A stretch of 59,686 nt of DNA, the filler included, from Basidioascus undulatus (taxonomy: Eukaryota), in the NCBI GenBank assembly GCA_000826855.1. It is 5 parts of 5 records of this genome, joined end to end, with 100 filler letters (N's around TTAATTAATTAA, not from the genome) between each part and the next. Parts side by side here need not be neighbours in the genome. Positions count along the whole stretch, not along the records: positions 1 to 7,759 come from JTLS01001497.1; 4 more parts are not named here. One strand, given 5' to 3'. The notes below the pieces were generated by a model. That model was not told where the DNA came from. It ran no database searches and saw only the letters and a list, made by a program, of their open reading frames with translations. The position numbers were made by a program, and so were the translations under genes. Positions within the stretch are counted from its first letter, which is position 1; every line of letters starts with the position of its first letter. Shown here one piece after another: positions 2,386 to 51,200 of this stretch.

Positions 2386-4175
2386 TCAGAGCCCCGGCGG
2401 CGGCCTTGTTGCATACGTAGAGACGGTGGACACCGTCAGCAGTCCGCGACAGCAAAGAAAAGGGACAAAGGGAGAGAACGACGCACGGAACTGCGCCGTA
2501 GACGCCTTGGCCTTCGCGACGCTGCTCCTCGGCCGGAGGCGCGGGAGGCTGGCCAGGAGGAGGAGCCGGCGCACCGCCGGGCGTCGCACCCGCTTGCTGC
2601 GCTGCTTGAGGGTACTGAGCGTAGTCTGCGAACAGCAGCCCAGAGACGCGTCGGGATTGATTAGCAGCAGTGCCAGAGTGCGAGAGGAATGCGACGTACA
2701 CGCCGCGTACTGCTGCTGCTGCTGCTTCTGCCACTCGATGAAAGCCCTGCTTGTCCAAGCACTTCAGCAAGCATGCCAAAGAAAGATAGAAAAGCGACGG
2801 ACGGGTCCTTGACGTTGTAGCCGTACGCAGCCCAGTACGCCGTGAACGCGTCCTCCCCGTTTGCGCCAGAAGCGTCGCCACCCGGTGCGGGGGGTTGGCC
2901 ATCTGCGGGAGGCGGGGGCGGAGGCTGCTCGCCGCCGGGCGGGGGAGGCGGCGCAGGCTCGGAGGGCGGCGGAGGAGCTGGGTAGCCCTATGAGACAAGA
3001 GGCAATAAGCGGTTCGTTCGCCAGAAGCGGTCAAGCCAGAAGCAAAGGGGATACGCACGTAGCCAGGGTAGCCAGGGTACCCACCGTATCCCATCGGTGG
3101 CTGCATGCTCGCCTGCCGTGCCTTCTCCCATTCCTGGCGGACGATAATGAGCAGATCGTCCGCGAGCTCCTTCGCGCGGGGGAACACGCTCGAGTCGGGC
3201 CCGGAGATGGAGATGTGCATGGGCTCGGTGGACTCTGCGCCCGTGTCGGGCTCGAAGAAGCCCGAGCCGCGACCCTTGATCTGCACACGGGTGCCCGTCT
3301 CGGACTGGATGTACTTGACGAAGAGACCCTGGGAACATCCGTCAAAGCCAGATTTAGTCGCGCTGTACCAATCGCAACAGGGCGCAGAAAGAGCGTACCG
3401 AAGGCCCGACGACCTTTGCGCGAACGTTGAAGTTGCGCAGCGGCTCGAGGTTGATGTACACCTTCTCCTCGTCCCACTTCCTGTTCCGCTCCGCGCGTAT
3501 GCGCTCTTCGTACTCCCTGCGCGCCTTCCCGCGATCCTCGATCAACGGCCCGAGCTCCTGGTTCTTGAGCTCCTCGATCGTCGCGACGGCCTTGTCGAGG
3601 ATCTCCTGCGACGTCGCGGCAACGTGCAAGAACAGCGGCGGGTCGTTCTCGGTAGCCTTGGAACGGTCGGGGTACCAGGTTCCCTTGGTCGTCACGGACG
3701 CGCCCGTCTCCTCGAAGATCTACGTGACCATACCGTCAGCCAGACGACTCACATCCACCTAGTGCATCAAGTGCGCACCTTCTGCTGCGTCGCACCCTTG
3801 GTGAGCATATAGCGATTCCGCAAGTCATTGACCTGTAGCCGCCGTCCACGCGTAAGCATCACGCCTATGCTCCTGCCCTGTAGCTGCTGCATTCACGTCG
3901 ATGTCCTTGGTGAACGGCGCGTCATGCAGCGCGGGGACACTCATTCCCTGCTGAGCGCCGCTGCCCCTCGGCGCATACTGCGCGGCGATCTTTGCCGCGG
4001 CAGCCGCTGTTGTATGTTTGGAAGACGGCATGAGCTTCACTGTCGAAATCCTCGGAGCGCTGAGAATCTACGCACCAGCAGCAGCAGCAGCGTCCGCGGC
4101 AGGATTCCCGGCTGGGCTCCTGGAGGCTGCGGGAGATGCGGACTGGTCCCAACGAGAGCGGCCGGCGTCGGACAT
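2386..4175 (-). CDS. KH-domain RNA-binding protein, KHDC4/BLOM7/RIK-like, multi-exon
   Basis: Motifs FTKDIDVND.RNRYMLTKGATQQKI, TTKGTWYPDRSKATENDPPLFLHV and FNVRAKVVGPSGLFVKYIQSETGTRVQIKGRGSGF. Pro-rich tail ending VPPPPGL. ATG at 4175. Confidence 0.88.
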
Positions 4176-4302
4176 GGCTAGTGTGAGCTTGGTGTGAGTC
4201 GAGGACGAGGACGAGGAGGCGGACTTGGGCGAACGTTGAAGGCAGGCCGTCCAGTTACAGGCGCGGACATCCGGCGGTTGTCCGCCGTGTAAAGCGCTGC
4301 AG

Positions 4303-4875
4303 CTATCGTTTATCGTTTCTTTTCCACCACCTGCCGTGCCATAGCCTCATAATGCGGAATTGCACACTTGAAGATATTGGATACACGTGCATTTCGTCAT
4401 CATCGAAGTCTGCGTGGTACTCACTACAGTTGAGAGGTGAGAGTCCCAGACACTCGTTATCCCATAGCACCACCTCCATCGGCTGCGCATTGGAGAACGT
4501 GAGGGATGGAGGCCTTACCACTATCGCATAGTCCCCCTCCTGGACGCTGACAGCCTCGTAAGAGCCCTCGGGGTGGTCAGAGAAGGCCGACGTTCCGGTG
4601 TGCTTCAAGTACTTCATGTTCTCAGCTACCCTACGGGGGAGAGCCACCTGGTTCCTCAGGAGCCCCCAGCACGGGGCTATTACCAACCGCGCACTACCAT
4701 CTACGGACCCCGAGAGCACACTGTACCTGAAGGTCCCTCCCTTGGTCATCATGATACCCAGGAGCCCCTGGTTGTAAGCCTCACTTCCTCCTCTCTTCTC
4801 CATCAGGTCAGAGGCAAGCCTGGCATAGCGGTTCTTGAACCTAGAGGAGACCACAAAACACGACCTTGCGCACAT
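4303..4875 (-). pseudogene. Divergent multisubunit RNA polymerase largest-subunit (beta'/Rpb1-like) catalytic DPBB fragment, intronless, probably of viral or mobile origin
   Basis: Motifs colinear with Rpb1: KGGTFR~KEGRIR, VDGSARLVI~VDFSARTVI, QVALPRRVAENMKY~QVGVPKSIAKTLTY, EGDYAIVVRPPSL~DNDPVLFNRQPSL, YHADFDDDEMHVY~YNADFDGDEMNLH. DFDDD lies at 4396-4410. Confidence 0.85.
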
Positions 4876-5002
4876 AGTAGAAGAACTGCTTCATAGGGCT
4901 GCTGGGTCTGCTGTAGTCGCGGTGGACCCTGAAGCTGTCCATACCTGGCAGATGCTTCGGATGGGGTATCAGTGGACCGCCAACCCTAGTTGCACCTGTA
5001 CC

Positions 5003-5290
5003 ATGCGCGTACTCGAACTGTTAGGCTTGGTAGCCAGGCTGGACTTCCAGGAGGAGTACGTGGACAAGAAGGCGCTGTATGCGTCAAGGGAGTTCAAGCT
5101 CCTAGCTTCCCTGCCTCCCCACCCGCACATCGTTGAGGTAGTAGGGCGCGTCAAGGGAGGCTACAGGATGAGGAGGTACAGGTACACCCCCTGGGAGGTT
5201 CTGGAGGCAGGGGGTGGCAAGCCTCAGCTGTGGGAAGTCATGCTCCTAGACGCACTCTGTCATCTCCATGCCAACAGCGTCCTCCACCGA
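5003..5290 (+). pseudogene. Truncated compact protein kinase (N-lobe to catalytic-loop HR), intronless
   Basis: MRVLELLGLVARLDFQEEYVDKKALYASREFKLLASLPPHPHIVEV...LLDALCHLHANSVLHR. Shows a beta3 Lys, alphaC Glu, the HPHIV motif and alphaE-LH...HR. The sequence switches to antisense MFS DNA before the catalytic Asp. Confidence 0.75.
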
Positions 5291-6690
5291 TGTCCAGGAG
5301 TATTTGGTTCCGCCCCAAGCGAGCGCAAGAATAATAGACGTTGTCGCGCCGATAGATATCAGGTTCCCGTTGCGAAAGCATCGAACTATAAGCTGTGCCC
5401 CTGACGCCGAGTCAATCAATGACTCACATCCAGTCCATCCTCCCCATCTTCTCCCGGAAAGTGTCACGGGGCGTCTTGAGGTTGAGGAAGACAAGGATCA
5501 AGACGATCGCGACACCCGCAAGCGGGAGGTTGATGTCTGCCGTTTAGCACAACAGTGAGCCGGGGCACTCACACCCTGTCGCGTCCCGTCACTCACAGAA
5601 CAGCCAACGCCAGCTGACACTCTCCGAAAACACACCGCCGATGATTGGGCCTGGTACGGGTGAAGCGTGAGCTTCGACAGAAACTTGGCAGGCAAGGTGG
5701 GTGAGAGTAGCCTCACCAATTGCGCTGGCCATCGCCCAGACTGATCCGAGGATCGCAATGAACGTTCCACGTTCCACGAGGGGTACCAGGTCGGCGAAGA
5801 TGATCTCGCACCTGCCGACCGCAAGTTGTGAGCTGCCGGCGCAAACTGCGGAAAACAGCCTTAGCCTTACAACGCTAGAATGCCGCCACCGCCCACCCCT
5901 GAATAGCTGCAGTATTCCGAAAGATTGACTAGTATCCCTTGCTTCAATTGGACTGAGGTTGGAACTGGATAAACCCCTCGCAGCGATAAGCCAGTTCAAC
6001 GTCTGCGCAGCCCCTGCGAGTGCGCTTCCGAGAGTGAAGAAGAGCAGGCTCGGCGAGCATGACCGTCCAGCGACCGAACTGAAAAGGGGTTCATTAATCA
6101 GAAATTTTCTGGAGTTGCGACTATTCATCTGAGATGTACGATGTTCGCCAAGCCACCGCTCCATGGGAGGAACCCTGTGGAAGTGAGGGCGTAGGCTGGC
6201 CGGTGGTGGAACCGGTGAGTTTCAAGACGACTGCACTGGCACGGCTCGGAAGAACCTCGGCTCACCTGTACCGACCCATGAAAACTAGCCCTCCCCGAGG
6301 TCTTCGATAATGGTAGGCAAGGCGGTGGAGACTGGAAGAGGAAGTTCGAAGACGTCAGCAGCATTCGACCGTCTGTCGACGCCTGTCGCTGAGAGAGTCG
6401 ACCCGAACCTGCTGTCTGTCCCACGTTGACCCACCATCAATCAGCATCGAACCAGTCCGTAATTTAGACAGGGGAATACTCACGAGATCCAGCACGCTCA
6501 GCAGAGTCGCGACGCAAAGGCTGAGGAACACGGCCCAAAACCGGGCGTCCCTCGGCGGCGGGGAGGTGGTCGTGGCTGGTTCCTACTTATGAGGAAGCTG
6601 GGGAATGCTCGGCTGTACCGAGTAATCGCTGCGTATCTTCTGGCGCAACGATGGAGTCGCCGAAGAGCTTGTCGGGGGTGCTGCCAACAT
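5288..6690 (-). pseudogene. DHA2-type (14-TMS) MFS drug:H+ antiporter pseudogene, 3'-truncated
   Basis: Motifs RDARFWAVFLSLCVATLLSVLDL, VSTALPTII, AYALTSTGFLP, IIFADLVPLVERG, GPIIGGVFSESVSWRWLF.INLP and LAWGGTKYSWTS. In-frame TAG stops at 6583-6585 and 6285-6287. Ends abruptly at ~5288. Confidence 0.88.
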
Positions 6691-7759
6691 GGTCGCTGAG
6701 ATTAAAGTGTGGAGAAAAGAACGCTGCCTGAGTGAGGGCAAGTTTTTGATATACATTTCATTTCTTTATGCCGAGCCCACCACACACATACTCCGGCACG
6801 ACATGCGACTGAATATGGGAGGGCTTACGCGTCGACGGCGGGCTCGACCCCGTATGACGAGGACTTTGCTGAGGAGAACAACGCTGGCGGAGTCGGGGTC
6901 GGGCACCAGGGCAGGCCGACTCGCCGTCGCAGAGGCCTGGGACTGACACGCAACAGTACTTTCTCTGGAAATGAAGTGACTGATAAATCTGCGAGAAGTT
7001 TCTAGATCTTTGGACCACAATCAGACACAAATGAACATTCTCATTCATCTCGAGGTATAAGAGGCACTCCCTCGAGCCTGGTCTCGACTGTCCAATGACA
7101 GCTGAAGTGTTGAGCTAGGCTCAGGCTCAGGCATTTAGACCAAGTACACGTACTGCTTTGATCGAGGTCGAGTTGCGCAGTCTCACCCAGTCTCTGAAGA
7201 GCGTGCGGCTGAGGCATGGTATGGCCGGACATGGGTGCCAGCGCCCCACCTGCCCCACCATTATGTAGCAGCGCCCGACTCCAACCGAGATGGCGACCCC
7301 GCTGAAGAGGACTAGCCCGATGATGATACGACGGCACAGAATGTGGAGGAATGAAGACGAGCCCGACGGCGATATCACCGAAATCAACACTCAAAGCACC
7401 ACGCATGTCTATTCTGCACTCTCGCCTGTACTGTTTCTGAGGATGGAATGCACACAAAGGTCCAGACCGGCCAGTTGCCTTGCACGTAAAAATGGAGCCT
7501 TATAATAAGGAACGTTTTGATCAGGCAGTTAACCTCACAGCCTCACAGCCGATTCGTGAATCTGCTGGTCTTCCACGCAGCGGTGCGAGCGACCGCATGC
7601 CGGGATGATAGATCATACTTTCTAACATCAGGCCTCGACGGTACAGCTCAGCAGCGAAGTAACAGAACGCGATAAAGATCAAAACAACAGCCCTCTCCCT
7701 CCTCCCTCCCCCACCTCCCTTCACCGCCTCCTCCCCTCCGTCCTCCCCTCCCCCTCCTC

Positions 7760-8759: not shown

Positions 8760-9790
8760 ATGCCCCATCAACCACACCGTCTCCTCGCGCTGATCTTCCC
8801 AACTTTCGAAGTACTCGCATCCCTCCGCGCACACTCTCGTAACATGCCACTAACCATCGACCCCAGCACCTCGACCTCTTCGGGCCCCTCGGCCTCCTAC
8901 TCCCTCGCTCCGTTGCATTCTCCTGCGTCATTGCCGGGCTCGACGGCCCGGGCGCGTACGAGAGCTCGATGGGGAATCAGATCTTGACGCAGACGACTGT
9001 GGGGGTGGACGAGGCGCTCAGGGGGGAGGTCGAGTGCGTGGTCCTTTTTTTCATTTCGTGGTTTGAGGGCTTATAGATGGGGAGAGCACAGGTTCGACAC
9101 GCTTGTGATCCCCGGCGGGATGGGGACCCGCAGGCTGCTGGACCAGCCGGACGTGCTGCAGAAGATTGGGCAGCTTGCGGAACGCGCGAAGTGGGTGTTT
9201 ACTGTCTGTACGGGGTCTGTCTGTGAGTCGGCTTGCTCTAAATATTGTTCTACTAGACAGTCGAAGCGACTTACTAACTTGTGGGAGGGTGCAGTGCTCG
9301 CTGGGACTGGACGACTGGACGGCGTGCGGGCGACGACGAACAAACGGGCATTTGATCAGCTCACGCCTCGCTGTACGCTTTCCTGCACCCTTTCCTGCGC
9401 TGCGCAGAGCACTGAGAAGCGGACGGTGGTGGGTTCCGTTACCAGACCCATCTGTGAACTGGGTCCACCGTGCGCGGTTCGTCCGGGACGGTACGGTGTC
9501 CTTCGGCTCTTCTGCAAAACCGAACCATCTAATCTTCTTTACTATACCCCCCGTTCTCACCCTTGTCAGGCAAGTACTTCACCACCTCGGGCGTAACAGC
9601 CGGTCTCGACGGCGCCCTCGCCTTCGCGTCCATCATCGAGTCAGGCATCCAGCCGGACGCCAGAGACGCGGACAAGTGGGGCGACCGCACGGCGTCGAGG
9701 AGGAATGCGTGGGGGATCGAGTACCGCTGGAACGAGGACGCAGAGGCGGACGAGTTTGCGGATGGCTTTCCGGAGGAGTTGAAAGAGTGA
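8760..9790 (+). CDS. DJ-1/PfpI family protein (isonitrile hydratase-like), multi-exon
   Basis: Motifs LIFPTFE|HLDLFGP, DTLVIPGGMGTR, TVCTGS (nucleophile Cys), GRLDGVRATTNKRAF, ARFVRDG and KYFTTSGVTAGLDGAL. Confidence 0.9.
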
Positions 9791-10555
9791 GCAGAACCTG
9801 GTGCGGGGCAATCACACGCTGGTTTGTGCATGGGGATGCTATGTGGTCTGACTGGAATATAATCTTCTAAATGGCACATCGACAGCATACCCCCGCTATT
9901 CAGACTGCCAGCTGGTGGTTCGTTTCGCTCAGGAGGTTCACGCTCACCGTCCTCGCATGCGTCAAAGGATTCTTTCACTCAACCTTGCCGCAGTTGGCGA
10001 GCTCGCATCGTTCGAAGAGAACCCACCCTCTCCTTCTGCCCGAGGTGGGTGCCTATCACTCAAGCCACGATATTATTATGTTTCACCCGACAATAATACC
10101 AAGCGTCTCACGGGCAAGGTTCAGCTCTTTCCGCGGCGTGCCAAGCTCGAAATTGGCGAAAGCCGTTCCTGTCGAGCAGCAGCCTAAAAGCACCTACACC
10201 AAAAGAGAAATGAGCAACAGCCCTTATGGAGTGTTTACCTAGGCTCCATACCATCGGTTAAGCCAGAAGGGGTTCCAAGGGGCTTGGCTTACAGCGGTTG
10301 CGTTCCCCGTCTGTTGCTGCAGACGTGTTTTGGCTTGTCTCGGATACCCTGCTACCTCGTTGTTGAGAGCGTCGAAGTCCATTTCTTGCTCTCCTACGCC
10401 ACTCAATCATATTCTTTTCTCCATGTCTCATCTGTTCATACTGAAAGCCCTCGCTCGCTATGTTGCGCCTTCTCGTACTATTCATCCTCTCTGCCTTTGG
10501 AGGCCTCATCCTCGGCGCGCGTTCATTCCTCCACGGCAGAAGAATCTGAGATCGA

Positions 10556-11551
10556 ATGGGTCCGATGACTGGACACGACGAAGCAGCGCTGGACGACCCT
10601 GGCTGCTCTGTGGGCCGTCGCTGGGCTCGGGGCGGTCGTACTTGGGAGCGTTTGGGTGGAGGAGCGCGGACATCGTCGAGTACGGGGCAGTGTGCTTCGT
10701 TATTGTTGTTTCAGGTACGTCTACCCTGATCCCCATGTATTGAACCTCTTGGCTGTGCTGAGTGCTGAATCTTTGGCGCACCTGTCACAGTCCTCCACGT
10801 TCCTCCAGCTCTCCCCGACGCTCGACAACTCCCTGATCCCCTCCTCCCATTCCTCGCCCTCGCACTCTGACTGGACAAAACCTACTGCGATTCCGACCTC
10901 CTGGGCTCTCTGACTATGACATTGCTCGCGGCGAACCCCGGCTTGCTCGTCCGGGTTCTCATCTGTTCGCTCCCGTGCGATGGCGCCGTGGTGCTTCCCT
11001 TGGGGTTCCCGGCTTTGCTTTTGGCCACGGGCTGGGTGAGATCTACTCCGACTTCAATTCCCCGCCATTTATGTTGGAGCTGAACCGTTTTCACGAACTG
11101 TACAGGTCCTCGCCCTCGCCGTGGTGGGCGTTCTAGTGGCTAGGGAAGTACACCCCCCGCGCCGCTTGAAGTCTGTTCCGGCACGCACATCCTCGGTACT
11201 CAGAGCAACACAATCACGGGCACGAAGAGCTACCCGTTCCTGAACTAGACCCTGGAAGCCGTCGTTCCTGCCCTCGTCATGCAGAACACCTCCGGGCTCG
11301 CCTTCCTCGCGTACTGCGTCGACTACTCCCTCTCGCGCCCTCGCGGCGTACACCGTCCAGTCTACCTCTGCACAACCCTTATCTCTGTGCTAGTCTCCAC
11401 GTCGGCGTCCCTCCTGGGTGTGAACTCCGTCGTGCCGCTTTCCGACGTCGAGCGCCGCATGGCAGCGAGGCTTGCCACGTACGTAGCGGTCATCGCGTCC
11501 TGGCCGGTCATCTTTGTGGCGCTACAGCTTGTCAGCTGGATGAGGAGCTAA
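10556..11551 (+). pseudogene. Possible degenerate membrane-protein gene
   Basis: Hydrophobic segments (LPLGFPALLLATGW, VLALAVVGVLV, TYVAVIASWPVIFVALQLVSW) separated by GT-AG-like introns, with an apparent in-frame stop near 10868. No family recognised. Confidence 0.3.
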
Positions 11552-14184
11552 GTTGGTGAGGCGCTGCTGTCTACCGGACTTGAGCTGGGGATCAACGAGC
11601 CCAAGGGGATAGATGAGAAGGGTGAGTGGGTAGGCACGACGAGCGCGGTGTAGATGGTGCACGGGCAGCGATGTTCTATTGCACTGCATGGACGATTCCC
11701 GCCCAAAAACGTGTAATAAAGGCGGTATGTGCGGACTTGGACCTTCATGCTGGCTGCAACATCTGAAGCTCTGGTTCAACGCCGTCGTGCACGGCGAGGC
11801 AGGGCCATGGACGGGCGGCTACAAAGCCTACTGCTGATACGAAGAGCTTAGAAAAAGAGGGTGCCTGCGGTGGTCGTCAATTCGTCCGTCTGGAAGGATC
11901 ATTGCGGCCTCAATCCACCTGCACGGTCCCGGGCATCTTTTGCATGGGTCATTTTCAGCTTTCGCAGGCTGCGCTGCAGAACCGCTCTTGGGGCTAACCT
12001 GCTCAGCAAAGAGTAGCAGGTCCGGGAATTTGGAAAAGATCTTTTCTCAACCCTGTGTGCGGAGATCTATACTATACATCTCGTCAGAGGTTGGTCCTGA
12101 ATGAGCGATCTAAACATGTTGGCAGTATACGCCTGTACGCGCCTAATTTTACCTTTTACGGCCCACCTAACGTCCAAAAATATAAAATTCATAGTTTAGG
12201 GGAATTCTTGAGCCTTCCAGCTTGATCAGGTCCGCGAAGAGGAGCAGCGTACGCAAGCGAGGAAGCTGGAAAGCCTTCAGGCAGCTACAGCCACCGTGAC
12301 CGGCCAATGTCGCTCCAGTTCTCTTCACTTCGCATTTCGAACATTCCCTTCCCCCTCCCAAAACTTTAGATGAGAAGCGGTCTGCGTCTATAGTTAGTGA
12401 AGTCTCGCACAATCAGTCACGGTGAGATCGATCCGGAAAGCAACCTGCTAGCTGCGGCCCAATGCGTCCGGGTCATATCACAGTGCAACTCCAATAAGAG
12501 GCTCGTGAGTGAAGGCTGCACACTGTGAAGACATTTTCTGAATTCCCAAAAGTTGGAGTCTTCCCATGAGGGACTGGGGCGTGCAAGGCTCCCTCGCATG
12601 CATGGCGAGACGCAGCGGTACAAAGGCTGACGATGTGCAGATTAAGCTATACGCTGGGGCTGTCTTGACGCATTGGCTTTTTAATGATGGAGGTTAATCA
12701 TGAAGAGATGCTACAAAGGGACAGCTGACGGGTTGGAGGGTGCGAGGTGTTTTGCACGCTAAGACGCACGTCGCAGTGGTAGGAAGTCTGCAAGCCCAAC
12801 CAGCAATAAATGTTGTCTTCTCCCAAATTAAATAAATGTTACCACTGTTTGAAGACTTTTTACGGGAAATAAAGTACAGATAGATGCAAAGAGTCCTGGA
12901 ATCGTCTTTCACGCTGGCAGATTGGGTGCATGGGTTTGTGAGCTCAACCATAACAGGGCTCCGCGTGAACACACGCACAACAGACGTGCCGAGAGGAAGG
13001 ATGTCCTTTGCGACTATTACTATTGCTTAGTATGATTATCAGAAACTCAGGAGTGCAGTGTACAGTCCTACGGCCACAGAGCGGCCGCAGTGTTAGAAAC
13101 AGCGGGCAGCACATTTGTCGCAGTGCTCACAGCTGTAAGAGCGCACAGCATCAATGTCCGTGCTAGAAGTTCTTCTTCCGTATGTAAGATCAGCAAACAG
13201 GATGAGACGTGGTAATAGTCGTGCCTGAACCTGGGATATCCTCTCGTAAGTTACAGATGGATGCCCTTGTACAAGTAGAGATGCTCGAACGGAGCAAATT
13301 CTCACCGTCCGGAAGACGTTCCCGCAACGAAATGCCCGTGTCCGGGGTGCAAAAAAGAGAAACGCGAAGGAGCGACGCAGCTGACTAAGCGAACGATCCC
13401 AAGCTTCCATCCATACTTTTCCTTTTATGCCCCAGAGTGTCCTGACGCCCACGATGGCGCTCAACTTTGGACCTGCACTAGCAGCTGCACCGCTGCCCCC
13501 CAAGAGACGCGCCGGCGCCTTCCTCACCGCCCCGCTCCCGACGCTTTGGGCACAGAATCCTGAGGAGCGCACAGTGGCGGACCAGTGCGAGGTAGCTGAG
13601 CGGTGATCGACGCAGGTGGACTTTGGCTCGAGGTGAGTCTGCGTGGCGCCTGCTGCTATGACGCTCAACTTTGGGAGTGGGGCATTGTTTGGGCGGGACT
13701 GGAGGGGGAGGGCTGCCTTCGGTGCTGTGACTATGGGCGGGCATGGGGGATCTGGAGATGGGAGATGGGATGCTGTGGCTGCATGGCGAAGACGGAGAGA
13801 TGGGAGCTCTGCGGAGCTGATGCACTGACTCCACCCAACCCGTAGACCGACCAGCTTAAACCTGAACGAGTAGAACCTCTACCGCGGGCGCTGCAGCCGC
13901 TGAACGATTGATACGCGCTTCTCCAGCGTGAGTGCCCGTCCCACGTTCTCGCAGGGAAGGTCAGAAGACGCAGGGGCAGGGCGGGCGCTCTCCCCTCGTT
14001 ACGATGTCGAACATCCGAGGCTGTGCTGGGGGAGAAGAGAGAGGGCAGGAGGTGCAGGATCCCAAGTTGCACTGTTAGCTGATGAAACGCTCCCTGCCAG
14101 TCCACAACCCATCTCCAATCGGCTGCCACCTCTCCTTAGGCCTCCTGCCCATGCGTCCCAACGGGCAATAACACTCCAGCCACG

Positions 14185-15717: not shown

Positions 15718-15760
15718 CCCCTCCCCCTTCCCCCCCCCCCCCCCGGCCCTGCCCGCGCAG

Positions 15761-17095
15761 ATCGAGTCCGCTACCCTCGACTTCCCCCCGAATCCCTCCT
15801 CCACGCCGAACCTCGAGAAGCTCGTGAGCCTGACGAGCTACGATCGCAAGTGGATGGACGAGCTTGTAGGCGCCGTGTGCGAGAGCTGGGACGAGGAGGA
15901 CCCCAGAGCACAGGGTGGGATGCGGTGAGTCTTCTGGCGCTCGCGGTTGGGGAGATGGAGAAGGTTTGCGGGGAGGGTGCGGGTGGGTCGGTGTGCGGGC
16001 TGTGGAGAAGGCCATGGATGGGATGGGATGCGGAGGGGGGTTGGGAGTGGGATGGGAGGGGGATAGAAATGGAGATGGGAGAGGATGAGGGACTGGATGG
16101 GTTGGGGATCAGGTGGAAGGGGGATGAGGATCGCGATGGTGATGGCGATCACGATGGGATAGGGAATGGAAGCTGATTAGAGTGTGAGGGAGCAGGTTCA
16201 AGGGCAGCGACGACTATCTGCGGGCCAAGGTGCGTTGTACGCGCAGTCGAGGAAGGGGGGGAAGATGGAACTGATGAGGTGGTGTGGGGCGACAGTTCGA
16301 GGACTACATCTGTTCTGCGCTCTCGGCGATCAAGTATACCGACTACTTGAGGATTGTCGGCGGGAAGCGGAACGACGGTGCGACTTCGGGGATGAGTGCG
16401 TCCCCTCTCGCCACCTTCCTCTCTTGTCATCACACTCTGTTCCCCCTTCCCATCTCCTCCCCCTCCGTCCCTCCCCGTCTCCCTCTCTTCCCCGTCTACT
16501 TACCCGACCTTCTGTCTTCACCTCGCTCCACCGACGATGCCGACGCTGACGGTACTCGAGGTGTCCAGCAGACTTGGACAAGTCACCCACGACCGCCTTC
16601 GGCGAAGCGTGGATCGCCGCGCTGCGGAAAGCGCCGGCCATCGCAGATTGGGACAAGCGGACGGACTCGGCGCTGTTTGATCTGATCGAGCCTCGGTGCG
16701 TCGGCCTCCTCCCGTCTACTCCCCTTCGCCCACTCATCCTTCTTACCCTAACCCGCACTAATCCCGCCCCGACTCCCACTAGCCACCCTTGCCTCCTCAC
16801 CCCGACCCCCCTCTCAGACATCGGCATCCGCCTCTCCGAAGGGCTGCACGACCTGCATCTGGACGAGCAGCTGAGCGCGGCGCGCGAGTGGGGCGGCCGC
16901 GCGTGGGCCGAGGGGTCCAAGCGCGCGAGCGGCGTGGACGGGGACAAGATCCGCGCTGCTGTGGGAGGGTGGGGCGCGTACTTGGCGGGACGATTCGGGG
17001 GGAAGGAGGAGAAGGATGGGAAGATCGGGGAGGTGAGGGTCGGCGAGGGAGATGGGGGGTGGCATAATGAGAGGTGGAAGAGGGAGAAGAAGTGA
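15761..17095 (+). CDS. AVL9: Late secretory pathway protein AVL9, C-terminal exons (5' part in the gap)
   Basis: LSLT-like LTSYDRKWMDELV...WDEEDP, FKGSDDYLRAK|FEDYICSAL, WDKRTDSALFDLIEPR|HPC and SDIGIRLSEGLHDLHLDEQL match fungal Avl9 C-terminal motifs. Confidence 0.82.
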
Positions 17096-41822: not shown

Positions 41823-44800
41823 ATGGCGTACGACCCCTACAGTCCTCCTCGCCGCCAGCGCGAGGACGACAACGCTCACCTTGTGGACACCTACGACGAT
41901 CTCGATAACGACTCCTACTCGCACGGCCCGAGCCTCGAGCGCGGATACGCTCAGGGCGGCGCTGCGCTCGACCCCTTCTTTGGCGACGACGACCATCTCC
42001 CTCCTCCCTCCGCCTCGCGCACGAACCAGGGCGCGCTCATCACTTCCCTCGACTCCACACCCTACTTCGGGCCGCCGAGTCCGAATCATTTCAAGGACTG
42101 TAGCCCGCTCGCGCAGTCGGCTGCCGCGCCCGCGGGCAAGACGGTCGAGCAGCTCGGCTATGAGGAGAGCGACTTCTCGGACGACGAGGATGAGGGGCGG
42201 AGGAGGCCTGGGATTGGGCAGAGGCTGAAGGACATGATGCCGAAGTTTGGGCGAGGGGAGAAGAAGCTTGAGGGCGAGCGGGTGCTCTACCTGAACAATC
42301 CGCCTCTGAACGACGCCCAGGTGCGCTCTCTTTTTCAACCTGTGATGCCAATCAGATGCTCTGACTTCGGATCGACCATATTCGCTCAGAAATTCATCTC
42401 GAACTACGTCTCAACCAGCAAATACAACGTCATCACCTTCGTACCGAAATTCCTCGCAGGTGCGTCTCGCCCGTCAGCGCGTCACTGGTAGCGTAGGACT
42501 GATCATTTGCCTCATACAGAGCAATTTTCCAGTAAGGTTTTCAGCCTTCTGAGCAGGATTCATGGTAACTGATTTTTGTTCCTGGGCAGAATACGCGAAC
42601 GTCTTCTTCCTGTTCTCCGCATGTATCCAGCAGATCCCGAATGTGTCCCCCACAAACCGGTCAGTCGATCGCGAGCCATTATGTCCTGGTCTTGAGCTTA
42701 CAATGTTGGAGACAGTTATACCACTATCGTCCCGCTTTCGCTGTGCGTCCCCTCGTTCATGGCTGCATCCCCTGCGCAGTGCTGACATGCGAACGAAAAC
42801 CCAACAGCGTCCTGCTCGCATCGGCCTTCAAGGAGATCTCGGAGGACATTAAGCGCCACCGATCCGACAGCGAGCTCAACGCGCGCAAGGCGAAGGTGCT
42901 CATCGGCAGCTCGTTCGAGGACCGCGCGTGGCGCAAGATCCGCGTCGGCGACATTGTCCGGCTTGACAACAACGACTTTATCCCCGCCGACCTCGTACTA
43001 ATGTCCAGTTCCGAGCCGGAGGGCTTGTGTTACGTGGAGACTGCCAACTTGGACGGGTGCGTCCCGTGGGAGGCAGGCCCTCCTGGCCTGCGCGTGATCG
43101 CTGACCGCGCGGATATGCGCCAGCGAGACCAACCTCAAGATCAAGCAGGCGAGTCCGCAAACAGCCGAGCTCACGTCGTCAAGCCTCATTTCGCGCTTGT
43201 CCGGTCGCCTTCGTTCCGAGCACCCCAACAACTCCCTCTACACCTGTTCGCCGGCTTTCATAACTGTAGCAATGTCTGAGTGACTGACTGTCCTAATTCC
43301 GTACAGACGAGGGTACTCTGGAGCTCAAGAACGGCCCGACGGAGCGGCAGGTGCCGCTCGGACCGGATCAGATCCTGCTCCGCGGCGCGCAGATCCGCAA
43401 CACGCCTTGGGTATACGGGCTAGTCGTTTTCACCGGGCACGAGACGAAGCTCATGCGGAACGCCACGTATGTGCTGTATATCCTTGTTTCTCAACCTAAA
43501 GCCGCTGAGATTGGTAAGACAGCGCCGCGCCGATCAAGCGGACAATGCTCGAGCGTCAGGTCAATGTCCAGATCGTCTTCCTCTTCGGTATTTTAATGGC
43601 TCTCGCTATCGCGTCTACCATCGGCGCTTCGGTCCGCAATGTGCGTGAAGATTTTCTTTGATACGCTGATGCAGCACTCACGTGCAAGGCACGCAGTGGG
43701 TGTACGGTCACACCATGTGGTACCTCGCCTTGACGGAGGAGACCAAGAGCAAGGCGATCCAGTTCATCGAAGACATCCTTACGTTCATCGTGCGCTCTGC
43801 TTCCTTTCCATACAATCAGAACCTCCCAAGCTGACGCTCCACTGGACGATAGATCTTGTTCGTCGCATTTTATCTTAAGTATTACGCTTGCGCTTACGTT
43901 CGAATTCCAGGTACAACAACTTGATCCCTATCTCGTGAGTTTTAGATTGCAGTTCAATATCAGAGCCACAGCGAAGCTCATCTTGCACGCGCGCAGCCTC
44001 ATCGTCACCATGGAAGTCGTCAAGTTCCAACAAGCGCAACTCATCAACTACGGTACGTAAAATAGGGTCTTTCGGACTCGTGGTATTCTAACGAGTCCCT
44101 TTCAGATTTGGATATGTACTACGCGAAGACCGACACGCCCGCGTTGTGCCGAACGTCGAGTCTTGTGGAAGAGCTCGGTCAAATCGAGTACATCTTCTCC
44201 GATGTATGTCTCTCCTTTAGTTACTACGCTCGAGCATCGCTCACAGGCTCCCACACAGAAAACCGGGACTCTCACGTGCAACGTGCGCCTGCTGTGTACT
44301 TTTCTCCCCAAACCGCAGGCTAAAACGGACGGCAACAGGAAATGGAATTCAAGATGTGCTCGATCGGCGGCACCGCCTACGCCGAGGTTGTCGACGAGTC
44401 GCGGAGGGGCGAGCCCGGTCCCGACGGTCAGCTGGTCGGCGGCTGGAAGTCGTTCGCCGAGCTGCGCGCACTCGTCGAGTCTGGCGCGCCGGGCTCAGAC
44501 GTTGCCGCGGAGTTCATCGCGCTGCTGTCCATGTGAGTGAAATGATCATCCGTTGCTGGATTGCGCTGTTCTGACATATCTGGATTATTCACTTGCAGCT
44601 GCCACACCGTCATTCCCGAAATGAAGGACGACAAGGTCATCTACCAGGCCTCGAGCCCAGACGAGGCGGCGCTTGTCGCTGGCGCTGAGGTGCTCGGCAA
44701 CCGATTCACGGTGCGTAGCTCCCTTGCCCATGCTGCGCCGAATCGTCGGGGTCTGACGTGTTAAACGGTCGAGCAGATCCGCAAGCCCAAATCCATCTTC

Positions 44801-47800
44801 GTCGAGATCCGCGGCGTCGAGCACGAAATCGAGATCCTGAACGTCTGCGAGTTCAACTCTACGCGCAAGCGCATGTCGACGGTCGTGCGCATGCCCGACG
44901 GCAAGATCAAGCTCTACACCAAGGGCGCCGACACGGTCATCCTCGAGCGGCTGTCGAGCAACCAGCCCTTTACGGAGCAAACTCTCGTGCATCTTGAGGT
45001 AAAAGCACAGTTCTGCACAGCGACGCGCGCGAAAACTGACCAACTGTTGCACTATCAGGACTACGCGACCGAAGGTCTCCGCACTCTTTGCTTGGCCATG
45101 CGCGAGATCCCGGAGGACGAATACGCGAGGTGGAGCGCAATCTACGATGAAGCCGCCGCAACGATCGTCAGTACCTCTGGTGTCTCGCCGCCCCTCAGGA
45201 CTCATTCTTACCCTTTCCGTGCCCCAGAACGGTCGTGGCGATGCGCTCGACGCCGCTGCGGAAATGATCGAGAAGGACCTGTTTTTGCTCGGGGCGACGG
45301 CGATCGAGGACAAACTGCAGGACGGCGTGCCCGACACGATCTACCAGCTTCAGCAGGCGGGCATCAAGGTCTGGGTGCTCACCGGTGATCGGCAAGAGAC
45401 CGCCATCAACATCGGGCTGTCGTGCAAGCTCATCAGCGAGAGCATGAACCTCGTCCGTCCCACGATCCAGCACTGTGTGCTGCTCTGTAACTGACATGTG
45501 GCCTCGACAACAGATCATCGTCAACGAGGAGAACGCACACGACACAAAGCAATTCATCACGAAGCGTCTCGAGGCGGTCAAGAGCCAACGTCTGGCCGGC
45601 GAGTTCGAGGAGCTGGCGCTCATCATTGGTGAAGTTCTTTTCAGTTTTCAAAGTATTGCGAGAGCTGATGTCGTCGCATGTAGATGGCAAGAGCCTAGGT
45701 TACGCGCTGGAGAAGAACATCTCCAAGAAGCTCTACGAGCTCGGCACGATGTGCAAGGTGAGCTCAGGTCCGCCTCGTGCGCACTGGCTGCACGACACGC
45801 CTGACTGACGCGCCTCCCTTTGTCTTCCAGGCTGTCGTCTGCTGTACGTTTCCATACTCTAACTCGTACAAACCCGACACACGCTGAGCTGCTCTCAACA
45901 GGTCGCGTCTCGCCGCTCCAGAAGGCTCTCGTTGTCAAGCTTGTGAAGAAGAACTCATCGTCACTTCTGCTCGCGATTGGTGACGGCGCGAACGACGTGA
46001 GCATGATTCAGGCTGCGCACGTCGGCGTCGGCATCTCTGGCGTGGAGGGCCTACAAGCGGCGCGAAGCTCTGACGTGGCCATCTCGCGTACGCTTTTCTC
46101 CGCCTATGGCACATGTGCACGTGCTCATGATTTTGTGCATGACAGAATTCCGGTACCTCAAGAAGCTCCTGCTTGTTCACGGCGCATGGAGCTACCAGCG
46201 CCTGGCGAAGCTTGTTGTCTTCTCCTTCTACAAGGCAAGTCCTCCTCGATCGACGCAAGCACTCAAATTCACGGCGCTGACACGGCGTTGCGCATTAGAA
46301 CATCTGCCTTTATATGACTCTGTAAGCGTAATGTAGACTATTACCGTAGCTATTACTGATCTTTTAACCTGCAGATTCTGTAAGCGTAGCAGTGATAACG
46401 CTTTCGAAGCTCTGCACTGCAGCTAACGTGACTTCTATCAGGGTACTCGTTCTTCAACGGTTACTCCGGCCAACCCGCGTACGAGTCGTGGACGCTCAGT
46501 TGTGCGTGGATCTTGAACTTGATTATCGGACGCACTGATATCTGATAAGTTATGCTACAGTCTTCAACGTCCTCTTCACGGTTCTTCCGCCTCTCGTCAT
46601 CGGAATGCACGTCCTCCGTACTATTCTAGCGGACACGGCTTGCTGACAGGACTTCCGTGCCCCACAGCTTCGACCAGTTTGTTTCGGCGCGCATGCTCGA
46701 CCGTTACCCGCAGCTGTATCAGTTCGGGCAGTCCAACTCCGCCTTCAACAAGCGCACGTTCTGGGCATGGGCGAGCAACGCGCTTTACCATTCCTTCGTG
46801 GGTTGTCTTGCTCGGCACGGGTCGTTCACCCAATTAACCCATGTGTCCTACCCGCAGCTGCTTTACGGCTTCTCGGTCCTCATCTACTGGGGTGACGGCA
46901 AGAACAGCAACGGTTACGATCTCGGTATCTGGCCGTGGGGAACGATGCTGTACAATGCCGTGCTTTTGACGGTTCTCGGAAAGGCGGCGCTCGTGTCCGA
47001 GTGCGTATTCGGCTTTGCTGTTCTTCGGGAAAGCCTGGCTGACGAACGTTCGCACTGCAGCATCTGGACGAAGTGGACCGTGATCGCCATCGTACGATCT
47101 ATTTTGAGCCCATATTTTGCGAAGCAAAACTTAACTCGTCTTTACAGCCCGGTTCGATGGTCTTCACCCTTATCTCCCTCCCGCTCTACGCCTGGATCAC
47201 TCCCATGCTCAAGTTCTCGATGGAGTACAAGGGCGAAGTCGGCCCGATTTGGGGCGTGGGGTGCGTCACTGATGGCTCACATGCTCGCGAAGCCTCCTTT
47301 CGCTGATTCCTCACAATACAGGCTGTTCTGGTTCTCGCTCCCGATCATGGCTGTCGTGTGCTTGATTCGGGACTACATCTGGAAGGCCTACAAGCGCAAC
47401 TACCTACCGAACATGGTATGCTTCATCCCGTTGTTTCGCCAGGTCGTCGCCGTACTGACATTTCGCAACGTCGCACAGATCCATATTGTTCAAGAAATGA
47501 GCAAGTACAACCTGTGCGTTTTCGCCATGTTGATGTCATTTCATACTGCCGCTAACGCTCCCCCACAGGCACGACTACCGACCACGACAAGAGCAGTTCC
47601 AAGCAGCCGTTCGCAAGGTGAGTGCCACATCGTCGTCACACTGGACAACGGCTGATTTATTGCTGTCATTGCAGGTTCGCGCCGTCCAGCGCATGCGCCG
47701 GACGCGGGGCTTCGCGTTCTCTCAAACAGAGGGCACGCAAGAACAAGCCCGTCTAGTACGTGATCGCTAGCCGCCCCGCCCTCCGCTACGACCGGTTGCT

Positions 47801-48234: not shown

Positions 48235-51200
48235 TCAGACGTCTTCAAGCGAGACGTTGATTTTGCCGTCCTGAAGCCGCGCGGTTTCAATCGCGAGCTC
48301 AAGATCGGACGCATCTTGAATGGTTCTGAATGATCCAAGAGATGGCGAGGCATAAGCAGTGCACGAGCCATGGGTGAAGCAGGGAAACAGGCTCTACATG
48401 CGCGTTCCGTCTTCGTCCCTGAAACGCAGTCTCACCGCGTTCGCCCGTTTGCCAAACTTGGACAACACCTGAGGAGTAGCGGATTAGTTAATTTCCCAAT
48501 CAGCAGCTGCTGCCGAGAGACCGAGCCGCACCTGAGTAAGGAAGTCGTCGAAAGTCATGTCCGGGCTGACCAGCATGCCGCGCACATGGTCCATGTAATG
48601 AAGCTAACCATGTGGCAAGCGGCATCAGTTTATTGTCGCTGTCGTTGTATCATGTACGGAACTTGAGAGCGCACTTTGAAGCGAACTTTAGTTTCTGGGA
48701 AGGGCATGCCCGTCGCAATCGGCGAGCCAGCTTGCAGGTACTGCAAGACACCGTGTCCCAGCGCGTCAGCGCACGAGTCCAACGGACCACAGCGAGGGAG
48801 AAACACACAGGCCGACTCACATACTCCGCGGCTGAGCCGTACCCACTCTCCTCATCATCAGCGACGACCGACTGCGCATGCTTGACGACCCCGCCGGCGC
48901 CGTACGTGCCCCTCCTTCGGAGGCTGCCGCTGCCCTTGCCGAGCGTGCGCTGGCGCACGCGCACAGCAGCGGACAGCGGCTGCATCCCATTGAGCTGCGG
49001 GGAGGACGCCGCGGCGGAGACGGAGCTCGCAGCGGTCATGGGCGTGTGCTGGCTGCCGTTGAAGCTTGCCCAGCCAGGGGAGGGCGAGTCCTCCGTCGCG
49101 GAGGACGAGTAGCCGCGCTCGGCGTCGCGCAGCGCAGTGACGTACTGGTCCGCGGCGCCCTCCGAGACGGAGCGGTGGCGCACGCGCGGGAACTCGCTTT
49201 CCGCCGGCGCGGGCGTCGCGGGCGTGAGCGCGAAGGCGACTCGCCCGTCGGGTTCCTCGGAGGGCGTGAGCCCGCCCTGGACCGACGGGAGCTTGGGTCC
49301 CGGCGAGAGGAGCCCGCCGCCGACGGACAGCTGCGGCAGCCGCGGCGGCGCGTCGGTGTCCCGTTCCCGCGAGAACATCAGGTGGTGGTCTGCCTCCTGC
49401 CCCGAGTCGTAGCTCAGCGGGACGGGGCTAGTATCTGCCGAGCGAGGCCAGTTGGCAGGGATGTTGCGTGCGGTGTCGATCGGGCCCGGGCGCGATTTCC
49501 GCCCGCTGCGGCCGGCGAGCGTCGCGCTGCGGGAGGGGAGCGCAACGGACGGCGGGGGGCGCTCAGTCGTTGCGCTGCGGGAGCCGCCGGAGGAAGGGGT
49601 ACCGGGTCGGGAGAGCGTGGAGGAAGAGGTGTCGAGGCGGGCGAGTCGGAGGCCGGGAGTGACGGAAGAGGAGGGTGTTGAGGACCCACCGTCACGCTGT
49701 CGCTCGACGTCCTTCCACCCCGCCTCGACCAGATCGAAGCTCGACTTTCGCCGGCCGCACGAGGCGACGGCGGCGGCGGCATCCTCGTCTGCCTCGGAGA
49801 CGGACGGGGACGGGTTGAGGCTGCTCGGCAGGCGGGAGCCGGCGTAGCGCAGGGAAGCTTTGCGGCTGGGGAGGGTAGAGGCGGAGGATGAGCCGAGCGT
49901 CGTTGCCGGTCCAGCCGAGACGCTGCGGTTGAGCGGGGGAGGAACGAGGCGTCCCTCTGGGACAAAGTCCGCTGCGGACGCCGACTGCCCCTCGTCCGCC
50001 AAGTGCCGCCCGTGCATCCCGCCCTCGGCAATGGTCCGCGCGCGCCCGAGCCCAGCGAGACCGGGGCTCGCGTCGCTTGGGGCGCGGACCCGCCCAGAGA
50101 CAGTCGAGGGCGCAGATGCAGGCGTGGGACTGCGCACGCCCGAGCGGTCAGACGGGTCCCACACGCCCGCGCCGGGCTTGGCGCGCTCGCTCGCCTGGCG
50201 GTTGAGCTTCTTGGGCTGCCAGTGTGTCGGGTTGCGCTTGAGCGCGGCGTCGCGCTGGGCGGGGGTGAGGTTGGAGGAGACGGAGGAGGCGGCGTCGGTG
50301 GTGGAGTCTGGTCGGGAGGAGAGGGGGGCGAGGGAGGGGCGGAAGGCGGATTGCGGGGATGAGATGATTTCGGGGCCGACGGTGGAGGCGACTGAGGGAG
50401 GGCGCGCAAAGACCACTTTGGCTTGCCCGATGAAGTCCCGCGGCTTGAGGTTCCGGACCTGGCGCTCGTTCGGGCGGAAGACGAGCCCGGGCTGGACAGA
50501 GAAGGGCATGTACCCCTGGATCATCCCCCCCGTTCTTTCAGTGGCTCGCGACAAAGAGCCACAGGAGAAGAGCGGCACGCACCACCGCGTCGTCCGCCAG
50601 CGCATCGTCAATCACGCTCAGCTGCTCGGTGTTCGCGCCCTCGCGCGCCAAGTCGAGGTGCTGCTGCCCCTCGCGGGCCTGGCCAGCATAGTAGTACGTC
50701 AGGCTGAGGTTGAAGAAGATCTCGGTCGGGACGAGGCGGTAGTCGAGCCCGAGCTGGGAGTAGTCGCTGTGTCCGATCCGACCCTCGCTCACTCGTGAGC
50801 TTTGAAGTGGACTTGGTGAAGGGAGAGGTTGAATGGACATACATCCACGAGTTCCCCCGCATGTAATGCAACGCAGTCTCGAAGTCGTGCCGCGAGTGCG
50901 TGTACCGCCCGCGGAGGAAGTTGCACACGCCCGACTGGAAGTAGGCGATCGCGAAGTAGGGGTCGAGGCGGCTGTGGGGGAGCTCTAGAGGTCAGTCCGG
51001 GCTTCGGCGGGCATGAGGATGGAAACCGTTGGGGAGGTGGCATTTACACAGCTGAGGCGAACAGCTCGACTGCACGCTTGTGGTCCCCGAGCGTAGCATG
51101 GATCACAGCGCGGTTGACTGCGCGGGCGGGGGTACGGTGAGCGGATTGGAGGATGTGCGGGAAGGAGAGAGACAGACGACCGACATTCAATCTTTGCAGA

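Follow-up and report, generated by a model that had tools for sequence, protein, structure and literature searches.

How a fungus-type chromosome comes to carry part of the largest subunit of a multisubunit RNA polymerase (RNAP) whose motifs differ from those of Pol I, II and III is the question raised by one locus in the window analysed here, a 59,686-nucleotide stretch joined from five parts of the Basidioascus undulatus assembly GCA_000826855.1. At positions 4303-4890, on the minus strand, an intronless stop-to-stop frame of 195 codons (190 residues when counted from an ATG at 4875) had been described in a first-pass annotation as the catalytic domain of a streamlined, non-cellular polymerase. 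The answer reached in this work is that the locus very probably holds a captured and dead 466-bp fragment of a miniature beta-prime (Rpb1-like) gene, which derives from a compact double-stranded DNA (dsDNA) element and now lies in an intergenic spot.

The frame carries, in this order, KGGTFR, VDGSARLVIAP, QVALPRRVA, EGDYAIVVRPPSL and YHADFDDDEMHVY, the same five blocks that had been read there initially and attributed to the double-psi beta-barrel (DPBB) region of RNAP. This attribution, and the profile check suggested along with it, held: in a Pfam scan the frame scored 44.2 bits (E 3.2e-11) against PF00623, RNA_pol_Rpb1_2, whose curated cut-off is 25.3, and Rpb1_2 was the sole Pfam match at E<=10 of the window's fragment, coded P0001 in the alignment A1 described below. 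Moreover, in a phmmer search of the PDB the fragment matched 120 RNAP largest-subunit chains, headed by a bacterial beta-prime subunit (7.8e-8, ~30% identity) and including Pol V (8.5e-6), Pol I (1e-5) and archaeal Rpo1N (3.2e-5). The length of the frame alone was considered weak evidence in G+C-rich DNA, because 8 of 500 shuffles of positions 4201-5000 contained a frame of at least 195 codons, and it is the homology that counts instead. In the Mg-binding loop, all three Asp of the D-x-D-x-D pattern are kept in the fragment, and the Gly between the second and the third is replaced by Asp. In place of the signature of cellular Pol I, II and III (NRQP(S/T)LH, NADFDGD and a full dock), the fragment presents RPPSL, HADFDDDE and a spacer ~40 residues shorter. 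No match at E<=1e-3 was found in word-indexed protein libraries, at near or at longer lengths; PHROGs yielded weak matches only (4.8e-7 and 2.2e-6), and a tblastn search of PLSDB returned 36 records, all below 60% identity, the annotated ones among the matches listed being bacterial rpoC.

Edges and sister copies of the Rpb1-like piece

The extent of the piece was defined with public runs from two studies, of which X1 covers 0.84 and X2 0.74 of the stretch, and with a third run, X3, from the sample of X1, all three being compared on positions 2500-7500. Variant contigs of X1, X2 and X3 match positions 4370-4835 only, at ~90% identity, and then depart, with the same loose-end letters in the three runs. 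Beyond these positions the window is unrelated at the nucleotide level to the continuation of the variants (edges read by eye), which encodes residues resembling those of the protein family to which the fragment belongs, namely E-N-x-Y upstream and A-V-E-E-A-x-x-W downstream (by eye, in comparison with the family member P0002). Since the similarity of the variants begins at 4370 and breaks off at 4835, sharply in both cases, the piece was delimited there, and the first ~18 and last ~22 codons of the frame would be chance run-on into unrelated DNA. Thus, the extent initially given, 4303-4875, corresponds to a real frame but exceeds the piece itself. Similarly, the term catalytic domain was appropriate for the DPBB region with its Mg loop but not for the whole, as only 155 of ~600 codons are present, a relic rather than a catalytic subunit. 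The piece runs from a switch-2-like K-G-R block to the DPBB Mg loop, stopping just past ...MHVYPISS, and is equivalent to residues ~105-260 of a subunit of ~600 residues. The zinc motif and the bridge-helix-like and trigger-loop-like parts found in full-length relatives are absent from it. With neither the N-terminal zinc motif nor any of the subunit beyond the Mg loop, and with a private Gly-to-Asp change inside DFDGDE, the piece should be unable to act as a polymerase and is best regarded as an inactive relic.

The connection of this relic with its surroundings could be followed in the runs. A contig of ~4.4 kb in each of X1 and X2 is exact over 2500-4432 and joins the flank holding a KH-domain gene to the relic, and a 271-nt contig of X1, exact over 4795-5065, joins the other flank to it. 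The flanks have a depth of 46 in X1 and of 17-18 in X2; over 4337-4837 the summed depth reaches 183-201 and up to 604, respectively, owing to further variant contigs stacked there.

A key piece of information was provided by the differences between the window and its sister copies. The count covers the 37 differences within 4400-4798 among 40 of the 99 rows of the difference table (of the 46 differences of X3, at least about 35 were included). In 34 of these 37, the third base of a minus-frame codon is affected (binomial p 1.4e-13), and 36 leave the residue unchanged, the lone replacement being found at position 4400. There, the window reads GAT (Asp), while two X1 contigs, one X2 contig and one X3 contig give GGT (Gly), a residue that is nearly invariant at the fourth position of DFDGDE in the 33-row family alignment. 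Since the sister copies carry the canonical Gly, the DFDDDE of the window represents a private mutation. The near absence of replacements leads us to infer that the ~10% divergence arose mostly while both lineages were under purifying selection, and the capture appears to be fairly recent, from a variant that had diverged before. Repeat-induced point mutation was considered as the source of the transitions between copies and was rejected, because it would not respect codon positions and 34 of 37 differences are at third positions.

The contigs of X3 splice both the KH-domain gene and a transporter-like gene on the other side of the relic, and hence this run behaves like RNA. It includes a contig of 1800 nt (depth 131, the KH transcript having 161), in which positions 281-746 match 4835-4370 of the window with 46 differences, flanked by ~93 preceding and ~351 following codons, as many as a full gene of ~600 codons needs (of the contig, 30 letters are visible at each end). 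As this variant contig is present in an RNA-like run, it was concluded that the organism transcribes a longer sister copy of the relic gene. Among the runs listed as containing the stretch, none was classed as RNA. No X3 contig covered 4170-4336 or 4838-5330, nor did any carry the window's own relic letters. At the DNA level, each variant contig of X1 shows about single-copy depth (30-67 versus 46 in the flank), and a 648-nt variant contig of X2 has a depth of 568 versus 17-18 in the flanks, which hints at a high copy number in that strain, contig depth not being a copy count. Longer copies in the same organism are, then, under purifying selection and at least one of them is transcribed, so the family of elements seems to be alive in the organism that carries the relic.

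Several observations weigh against a captured and dead fragment. The 5' edge is bridged in X1 alone, and X1 may be the sample behind the window's assembly; among the contigs listed, none is exact over 4757-4794; the edges at 4370 and 4835 were placed by eye, and the count of codon positions covers 40 of 99 difference rows. A search for direct repeats, a target-site duplication or flanking repeats around the relic found none. Finally, the openness of the 195-codon frame, together with 36 of 37 differences being synonymous, could also mean selection on the piece itself. This last point bears on the notion that the piece has been put to use, either as a small protein made from the 190-residue frame or as a template from which small RNAs are made against the live copies (~90% identical) to silence them, in the manner of an immunity based on endogenous viral pieces. 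The ATG at 4875, the high identity to a transcribed copy and the recurrence of the junction in runs of two studies would suit such a role. However, a piece truncated at both ends, with a mutated Mg loop, within a frame whose ends are unrelated run-on and whose length is reached by 8 of 500 shuffles, makes a functional product or template unlikely.

The assembly itself might also be blamed, if a complete gene or element lay at the locus and the assembler had collapsed or jumped across repeated copies, leaving the fragment as an artefact. In favour of this notion, positions 4337-4837 are split into many short contigs of several variants, at the raised depths given above, and lack an exact contig over 4757-4794 among those listed. 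Nevertheless, exact contigs link flank and relic on both sides (2500-4432 in X1 and X2, 4795-5065 in X1) and in all three runs the loose ends of the variants are unlike the flanks of the window on either side, which renders this very unlikely. It is highly improbable that the contig is a contaminant or a chimera in which foreign DNA was fused to fungal sequence by the assembler: the composition of the relic is slightly off that of its flanks (G+C 0.556 versus 0.616 and 0.574; G+C at third codon positions 0.667 in the frame versus 0.907 in a KH exon), but the same junction between the KH flank and the relic recurs in contigs of two studies, whose depth there is single-copy and matches that of the flanks, so that the chimeric origin named initially among the refuting outcomes is countered by these contigs.

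The miniature beta-prime family and its parent element

The captured piece could be placed in a protein family. Its nearest relatives, 36-48% identical, are miniature beta-prime/Rpb1 proteins of ~600 residues. A HMMER search against 1.84 billion representatives gave 243 matches at E<=1e-3, 60 of them at E<=1e-10, with P0002 as the best (8.9e-39, 48% identity), and the strong matches are mostly 560-670 residues long and aligned at their residues ~80-270. Alignment A1, composed of 32 matches plus the fragment (33 rows), displays an N-terminal C..H..C.GH motif, the K-G-R block, GS.R.VI.P, VRPPSL, the Q-P, W and G columns and H-(A/G)-DFDGDE, followed by the conserved blocks QQL.QG..G..SR.AR and AQQ.ALDSHRA, which we read, by position and by likeness to beta-prime motifs, as bridge-helix-like and trigger-loop-like, respectively. 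The invariant K, R, R-P-P and D-D-D-E and the near-invariant Q-P, W and G columns are kept in the fragment, except for the Gly of DFDGDE. Thus, of the motifs initially described as rewritten, RPPSL and H-DFDGDE turned out to be family traits, and the fourth residue of DFDDDE is the private change. Pfam scans of ten family members (E<=0.01) detected Rpb1_2 only, one of them adding an N-terminal NADAR domain.

The family profile matched solved subunits over positions ~108-250 of its 586 only, with archaeal Rpo1N (4.9e-22), Pol I (2.4e-21) and Pol II (2e-20) ahead of bacterial beta-prime (1e-17 to 1e-14). Between the QVALP and RPPSL blocks it skips ~40 residues of Rpo1N, in agreement with the short dock insert noticed at first. 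On a profile of the core, family members score 100-223 bits with envelopes of ~165 residues, whereas long subunits, including those of giant-virus contigs, reach at most 93 bits with envelopes of ~200 residues; at 209 bits, the fragment of the window takes rank 10 of 175. In a maximum-likelihood tree (117 rows, 166 columns, LG+G4, quick search), one branch with an SH-aLRT (approximate likelihood-ratio test) support of 99 split 77 family rows and the fragment from all 39 long rows, of cellular or giant-virus type, the groups having been set by profile score, so that the labels are not independent of the alignment, and the long rows being unlabelled as to Pol I, II or III. The fragment falls in a group with P0002 and P0012 whose internal order is unsupported, its nearest row being P0002 (46% identity). 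A decayed duplicate of the largest subunit of host Pol I, II or III, which the shared Rpb1_2 family and the archaeal and eukaryotic subunits heading the solved matches of the family profile might suggest, is hardly credible, as the fragment matches Pol I and Pol V at E ~1e-5 (the best 60 of the 120 PDB chains include neither Pol II nor Pol III) versus 8.9e-39 for the miniature family, nests within this family on its side of the well-supported split, and shares its RPPSL, H-DFDGDE and short dock. Judged from its sequence, then, the window's piece is not a remnant of host Rpb1.

The full-length architecture was examined on a model of P0007 (651 residues), with a predicted local distance difference test score (pLDDT) of 81.7 and a predicted TM-score (pTM) of 0.80. 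This model aligns over its whole length with the largest subunits of Pol III, Pol II and Pol IV and with vaccinia Rpo147 (TM-score, TMq, 0.30-0.47), and with models of iridovirus, ranavirus, algal-virus and poxvirus RPB1 (TMq 0.42-0.49), a nudivirus LEF-9 model being a distant structural match (6.4e-6). Since it aligns end to end with largest subunits, the predicted structure indicates that the family is a beta-prime/Rpb1 shrunk below half its size. To our knowledge, it is the smallest archaeo-eukaryotic-type beta-prime subunit.

Regarding the hosts, a search with P0007 retrieved 22 proteins at E<=1e-5, and the six with organism names are all fungal: three from Puccinia sorghi and one each from Aspergillus alliaceus, A. 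hancockii and Ophidiomyces ophidiicola, on contigs of 2.9-154 kb. In IMG/VR, alignment A1 led to 91 pattern matches of which 4 loci were confirmed, all giant-virus RPB1 at 22-27% identity and none a family member, and the fragment alone gave no pattern match there.

The genes that accompany the family came from a scan of metagenomes, which provided 55 loci, ten of them (L005-L014) with full-length-type members (27-31% identity to P0007, E 9e-82 to 4e-29). Their contigs have a G+C content of 0.31-0.60 and dense, long, intronless frames on both strands, and 13-22 kb were examined per locus. By tblastn, the beta-prime open reading frames (ORFs) of all ten match the window, at 4336-4857. Clustering of their ORFs and Pfam scans defined the gene set listed in Table 1. 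The profile of its family-B DNA polymerase (PolB) matched archaeal PolB best in the PDB (2e-43), followed by Pol alpha and poxvirus polymerases. The beta-like subunit, encoded by an ORF separate from that of the beta-prime-like one, matched archaeal Rpo2 and the second subunits of Pol III and Pol II (1e-21 to 1e-20), vaccinia rpo132 (7e-14) and African swine fever virus (1.5e-10). The TFIIS-ribbon protein shows conserved K-P-D-G-E-R and D-V-G-S-G-x-G-Q stretches, weak methyltransferase matches and, on the zinc ribbon, a weak match to Baculo_LEF5_C; its profile (A4) recovered TFIIS zinc ribbons only from the PDB. From these stretches, which resemble K-x-D-G and SAM-binding motifs, and from the methyltransferase matches, it is a putative guanylyltransferase-methyltransferase capping enzyme. 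As for a particle, about 100 ORF scans in L005-L013, covering 44-79% of each larger contig, gave no Pfam match to a capsid protein, packaging ATPase or VLTF3; profiles A2 and A3 had no match in the PDB, and an AF2 model of a large capsid-candidate ORF (A2) had a pLDDT of 35.6, too low for use. The search for full-length copies and their neighbours proposed at the outset thus produced PolB, beta-like and TFIIS-ribbon genes on metagenome contigs, but no capsid in the portions covered. With these neighbours, the fungal names and the nesting of the fragment in the family, the initial idea of a streamlined RNAP from a fungal non-cellular element, as opposed to a decayed host Rpb1, was borne out.

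Other element genes were absent from the 59.7-kb window: when all frames of at least 100 residues of the ten loci were searched, only the beta-prime ORFs matched, and a phmmer comparison of all local window frames with the element ORFs likewise recovered only the beta-prime piece. No DNA polymerase, capsid or capping gene was found near the relic in the window.

These observations can be integrated into a model in which a 466-bp internal piece of an element gene, from an already diverged variant, was recently taken into the spot between the KH-domain and transporter-like genes, probably by end-joining at a chromosome break. In the parent element, the miniature beta/beta-prime pair would form the catalytic core of transcription, with cleavage and capping of the transcripts contributed by the TFIIS-ribbon protein, and RNA-primed DNA would be replicated by PolB together with the D5-type helicase and RNase H. 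As the RNAP pair, PolB, helicase and RNase H are all encoded by the element, its transcription and replication could proceed without the host polymerases, and the predicted genes make up a complete apparatus for both processes. A broader proposal is offered tentatively, its chances being slightly short of even: that live copies of a compact dsDNA element, transcribed and maintained by selection, reside in the source organism, whose genome is fungal and Dikarya-like. In one strain these copies would maybe be high-copy or episomal, and the element would encode a two-subunit mini-RNAP, an RNA-primed-type PolB, a D5 helicase, RNase H and a capping-type enzyme fused to TFIIS. This would be an undescribed lineage of DNA mycoviruses or cytoplasmic plasmids of higher fungi, placed between giant viruses and yeast killer plasmids, and the relic would be its footprint. 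The parent element may be either a virus or a capsid-less plasmid.

Features of the window and of the element loci

Table 1. Position of the relic and its neighbours in the window, and occurrence of the element genes among the ten metagenome loci (L005-L014).
Feature	Position or occurrence	Strand	Basis or remark
Captured internal piece of miniature beta-prime/Rpb1-like RNAP gene	4370..4835	-	466 bp, 155 codons; variant contigs, tblastn, Pfam
Open frame enclosing the piece	4303..4890	-	195 codons; both ends apparent run-on into flanking DNA
GAT (Asp) codon, fourth residue of DFDDDE	4399..4401	-	private G-to-D in Mg-binding loop
Spliced host KH-domain gene (KHDC4/BBP-type)	2500..4102	-	Pfam KH-I_KHDC4-BBP 2.3e-20; X3 contig
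Spliced host gene, weakly MFS-like (major facilitator superfamily)	5330..6500	-	X3 contig, CT..AC joints, depth 10; MFS_1 E 0.086
Beta-prime-like subunit	10/10 loci		Rpb1_2
TFIIS-zinc-ribbon protein, 720-756 residues	7/10 loci		TFIIS ribbon
Family-B DNA polymerase	7/10 loci		Pfam DNA_pol_B, up to 8e-42
DUF5906/D5-type NTPase	5/10 loci		Pfam DUF5906
RNase H, twice fused to NADAR	4/10 loci		Pfam RNase_H, NADAR
Beta-like subunit, ~845 residues	4/10 loci		Rpb2_6 and Rpb2_7
DUF7277-like protein	4/10 loci		weak Pfam matches
Protein of 516-569 residues	3/10 loci		no match

The relic is located ~270 bp upstream of the 5' end of the KH transcript (~4102) and downstream of the 3' end of the transporter-like gene (~5330). 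The X3 contig of the KH gene omits seven stretches of 56-74 nt with GT..AG ends on the minus strand, and that of the transporter-like gene has 37 and 25 other letters between two joints, at 5811-5975 and 6052-6140, and may represent a paralogue or differing exons. An open frame of 191 codons (4829-5404, plus strand) adjoins the relic; a kinase, suggested by eye for 4829-5401, was discarded, as the frame had no Pfam match at E 10 and no PDB match below E 0.35 and was unrelated to element ORFs. In the region 5041-5729, X1 and X2 both contain an alternative form of positions 5041-5287, which differs from the window at 21 sites and departs from it at 5287, and therefore a small additional repeat lies next to the relic.

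Elsewhere in the window, a P4-ATPase (flippase) frame at 42569-47652 has as its best solved relative the "Probable phospholipid-transporting ATPase DRS2" (3.8e-16), Drs2 being a yeast protein, and a DJ-1/PfpI-type frame at 8988-9593 is an ordinary host gene. The short GT..AG introns, the Drs2-like flippase and the fungal names in the family fit a fungal host. A 653-codon open frame without Pfam match is found in 48653-50611 (minus strand), and a block of very high G+C (0.67-0.73) at 49001-51000. Four pairs of 44-base N runs, 12 bases apart (7760-7803/7816-7859, 15618-15661/15674-15717, 23472-23515/23528-23571 and 51835-51878/51891-51934), have the appearance of masking, not of assembly gaps.

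In the element loci, NADAR-RNase H fusions occur in L005:5554-6609 and L013:8491-9468, with opposite domain order, and protein P0005 is a beta-prime-like subunit that itself carries NADAR at its N-terminus. The DUF7277-like protein (L006:16630-17811, L007:7100-8482, L008:8790-9953 and 15760-16746, L013:9501-10376 and 10413-11618) is doubled in two loci and has a G-S...D-S-D-W-D-F stretch that resembles, by eye, a nucleotidyltransferase motif, so it might be a poly(A)-polymerase-type enzyme. A PIF1-like helicase (2.4e-39) at a contig end, L013:12981-13910, may be an element gene or belong to the host or to other mobile DNA.

The element among known polymerase-bearing systems

The accessible portion of one paper poses the question of why Dikarya "are not infected" by giant viruses (PMC13533422), and that of another lists, as the only fungal DNA plasmids with their own RNAP, yeast-type virus-like elements (VLEs) and, since 2026, others from Zoopagomycota and Mucoromycota (PMC13348850). 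No description of a large DNA virus in Dikarya, or of the miniature beta-prime family, was found in the literature, a provisional result for which subscription journals lay largely outside the search; the element family is thus apparently undescribed. The relic provides a physical tie between a fungal-type chromosome and a gene set in which miniature beta and beta-prime are encoded separately, along with PolB, a D5-type helicase and a TFIIS-ribbon protein. A live element would offer a very small archaeo-eukaryotic-type beta-prime for work on structure and function, a new branch in the debate on the kinship of giant-virus, killer-plasmid and baculovirus-type polymerases, and, in higher fungi, a DNA-mycovirus or plasmid system amenable to testing.

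Compared with the RPB1 of Nucleocytoviricota (poxvirus Rpo147, iridovirus and ranavirus) and with Pol II, III and IV, the family model has the same N-to-C order of folds, and an archaeo-eukaryotic-type Mg loop ending in E is common to the family and to giant-virus and eukaryotic largest subunits. PolB, a D5-type helicase and a TFIIS ribbon are partners typical of giant viruses and present in the element. In contrast, the family has ~600 residues versus 1250-1970 in those subunits, RPPSL in place of NRQPSLH and a dock insert that is almost gone, and, unlike giant viruses, the element gave no match to capsid, packaging ATPase or VLTF3 in the 13-22 kb examined per locus. Baculoviruses and nudiviruses, whose hosts are arthropods, have an RNAP made of LEF-9, LEF-8, LEF-4 and LEF-5. 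Its composition shows a similar shrinkage, with a beta-prime-like subunit of ~500-600 residues, a beta-like one of ~850 residues, and capping and a TFIIS-like zinc ribbon tied to the polymerase. However, neither P0001 (E<=10) nor ten family members (E<=0.01) had any LEF-8 or LEF-9 Pfam match, and giant-virus and cellular subunits stand above nudivirus LEF-9 in the structural ranking of the P0007 model.

Footprints of giant viruses in fungi have been described, in the portions available of the corresponding papers, for fundsalphaviruses and fundsbetaviruses (PMC7017919) and for Mycodnaviridae (PMC13533422). In addition, the accessible part of a study of cordyceps fungi reports marker-only, unvalidated "GEVEs", and these marker matches might be the same family as the one described here (PMC13524828). 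As far as those portions tell, such footprints share with the element viral-type PolB, RNAP subunits and D5 helicase in fungal assemblies, but, the cordyceps matches aside, they come from early-diverging or zoosporic hosts and have a full-size or split RPB1, unlike the miniature family.

Yeast cytoplasmic linear plasmids, or VLEs (pGKL2 ORF6/ORF7, YKP6), likewise have a minimised multisubunit-type RNAP in a small dsDNA element. The VLE RNAP is a fusion of beta and beta-prime plus a small subunit. The available portions of two papers present yeast VLEs as small fungal dsDNA elements with their own RNAP, helicase and capping enzyme (PMC6211774, PMC13348850), and the second mentions two RNA polymerase subunits and a protein-primed PolB (PMC13348850). 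The element differs from them in both diagnostic traits, the protein-primed PolB and the fused RNAP: its DNA_pol_B protein matches archaeal PolB at 2e-43, and its beta and beta-prime ORFs are separate. Furthermore, its helicase is of the D5/DUF5906 type, and its PolB is nearest to archaeal PolB, Pol alpha and poxvirus enzymes, unlike that of VLEs. Lastly, the "NUPAVs" of yeasts and other endogenous viral elements are pieces of plasmids or viruses captured in nuclear DNA. They and the relic are alike in being short, promoterless, truncated and intergenic, with no repeats at their edges, while the donor of the relic is neither a known VLE nor a known giant virus.

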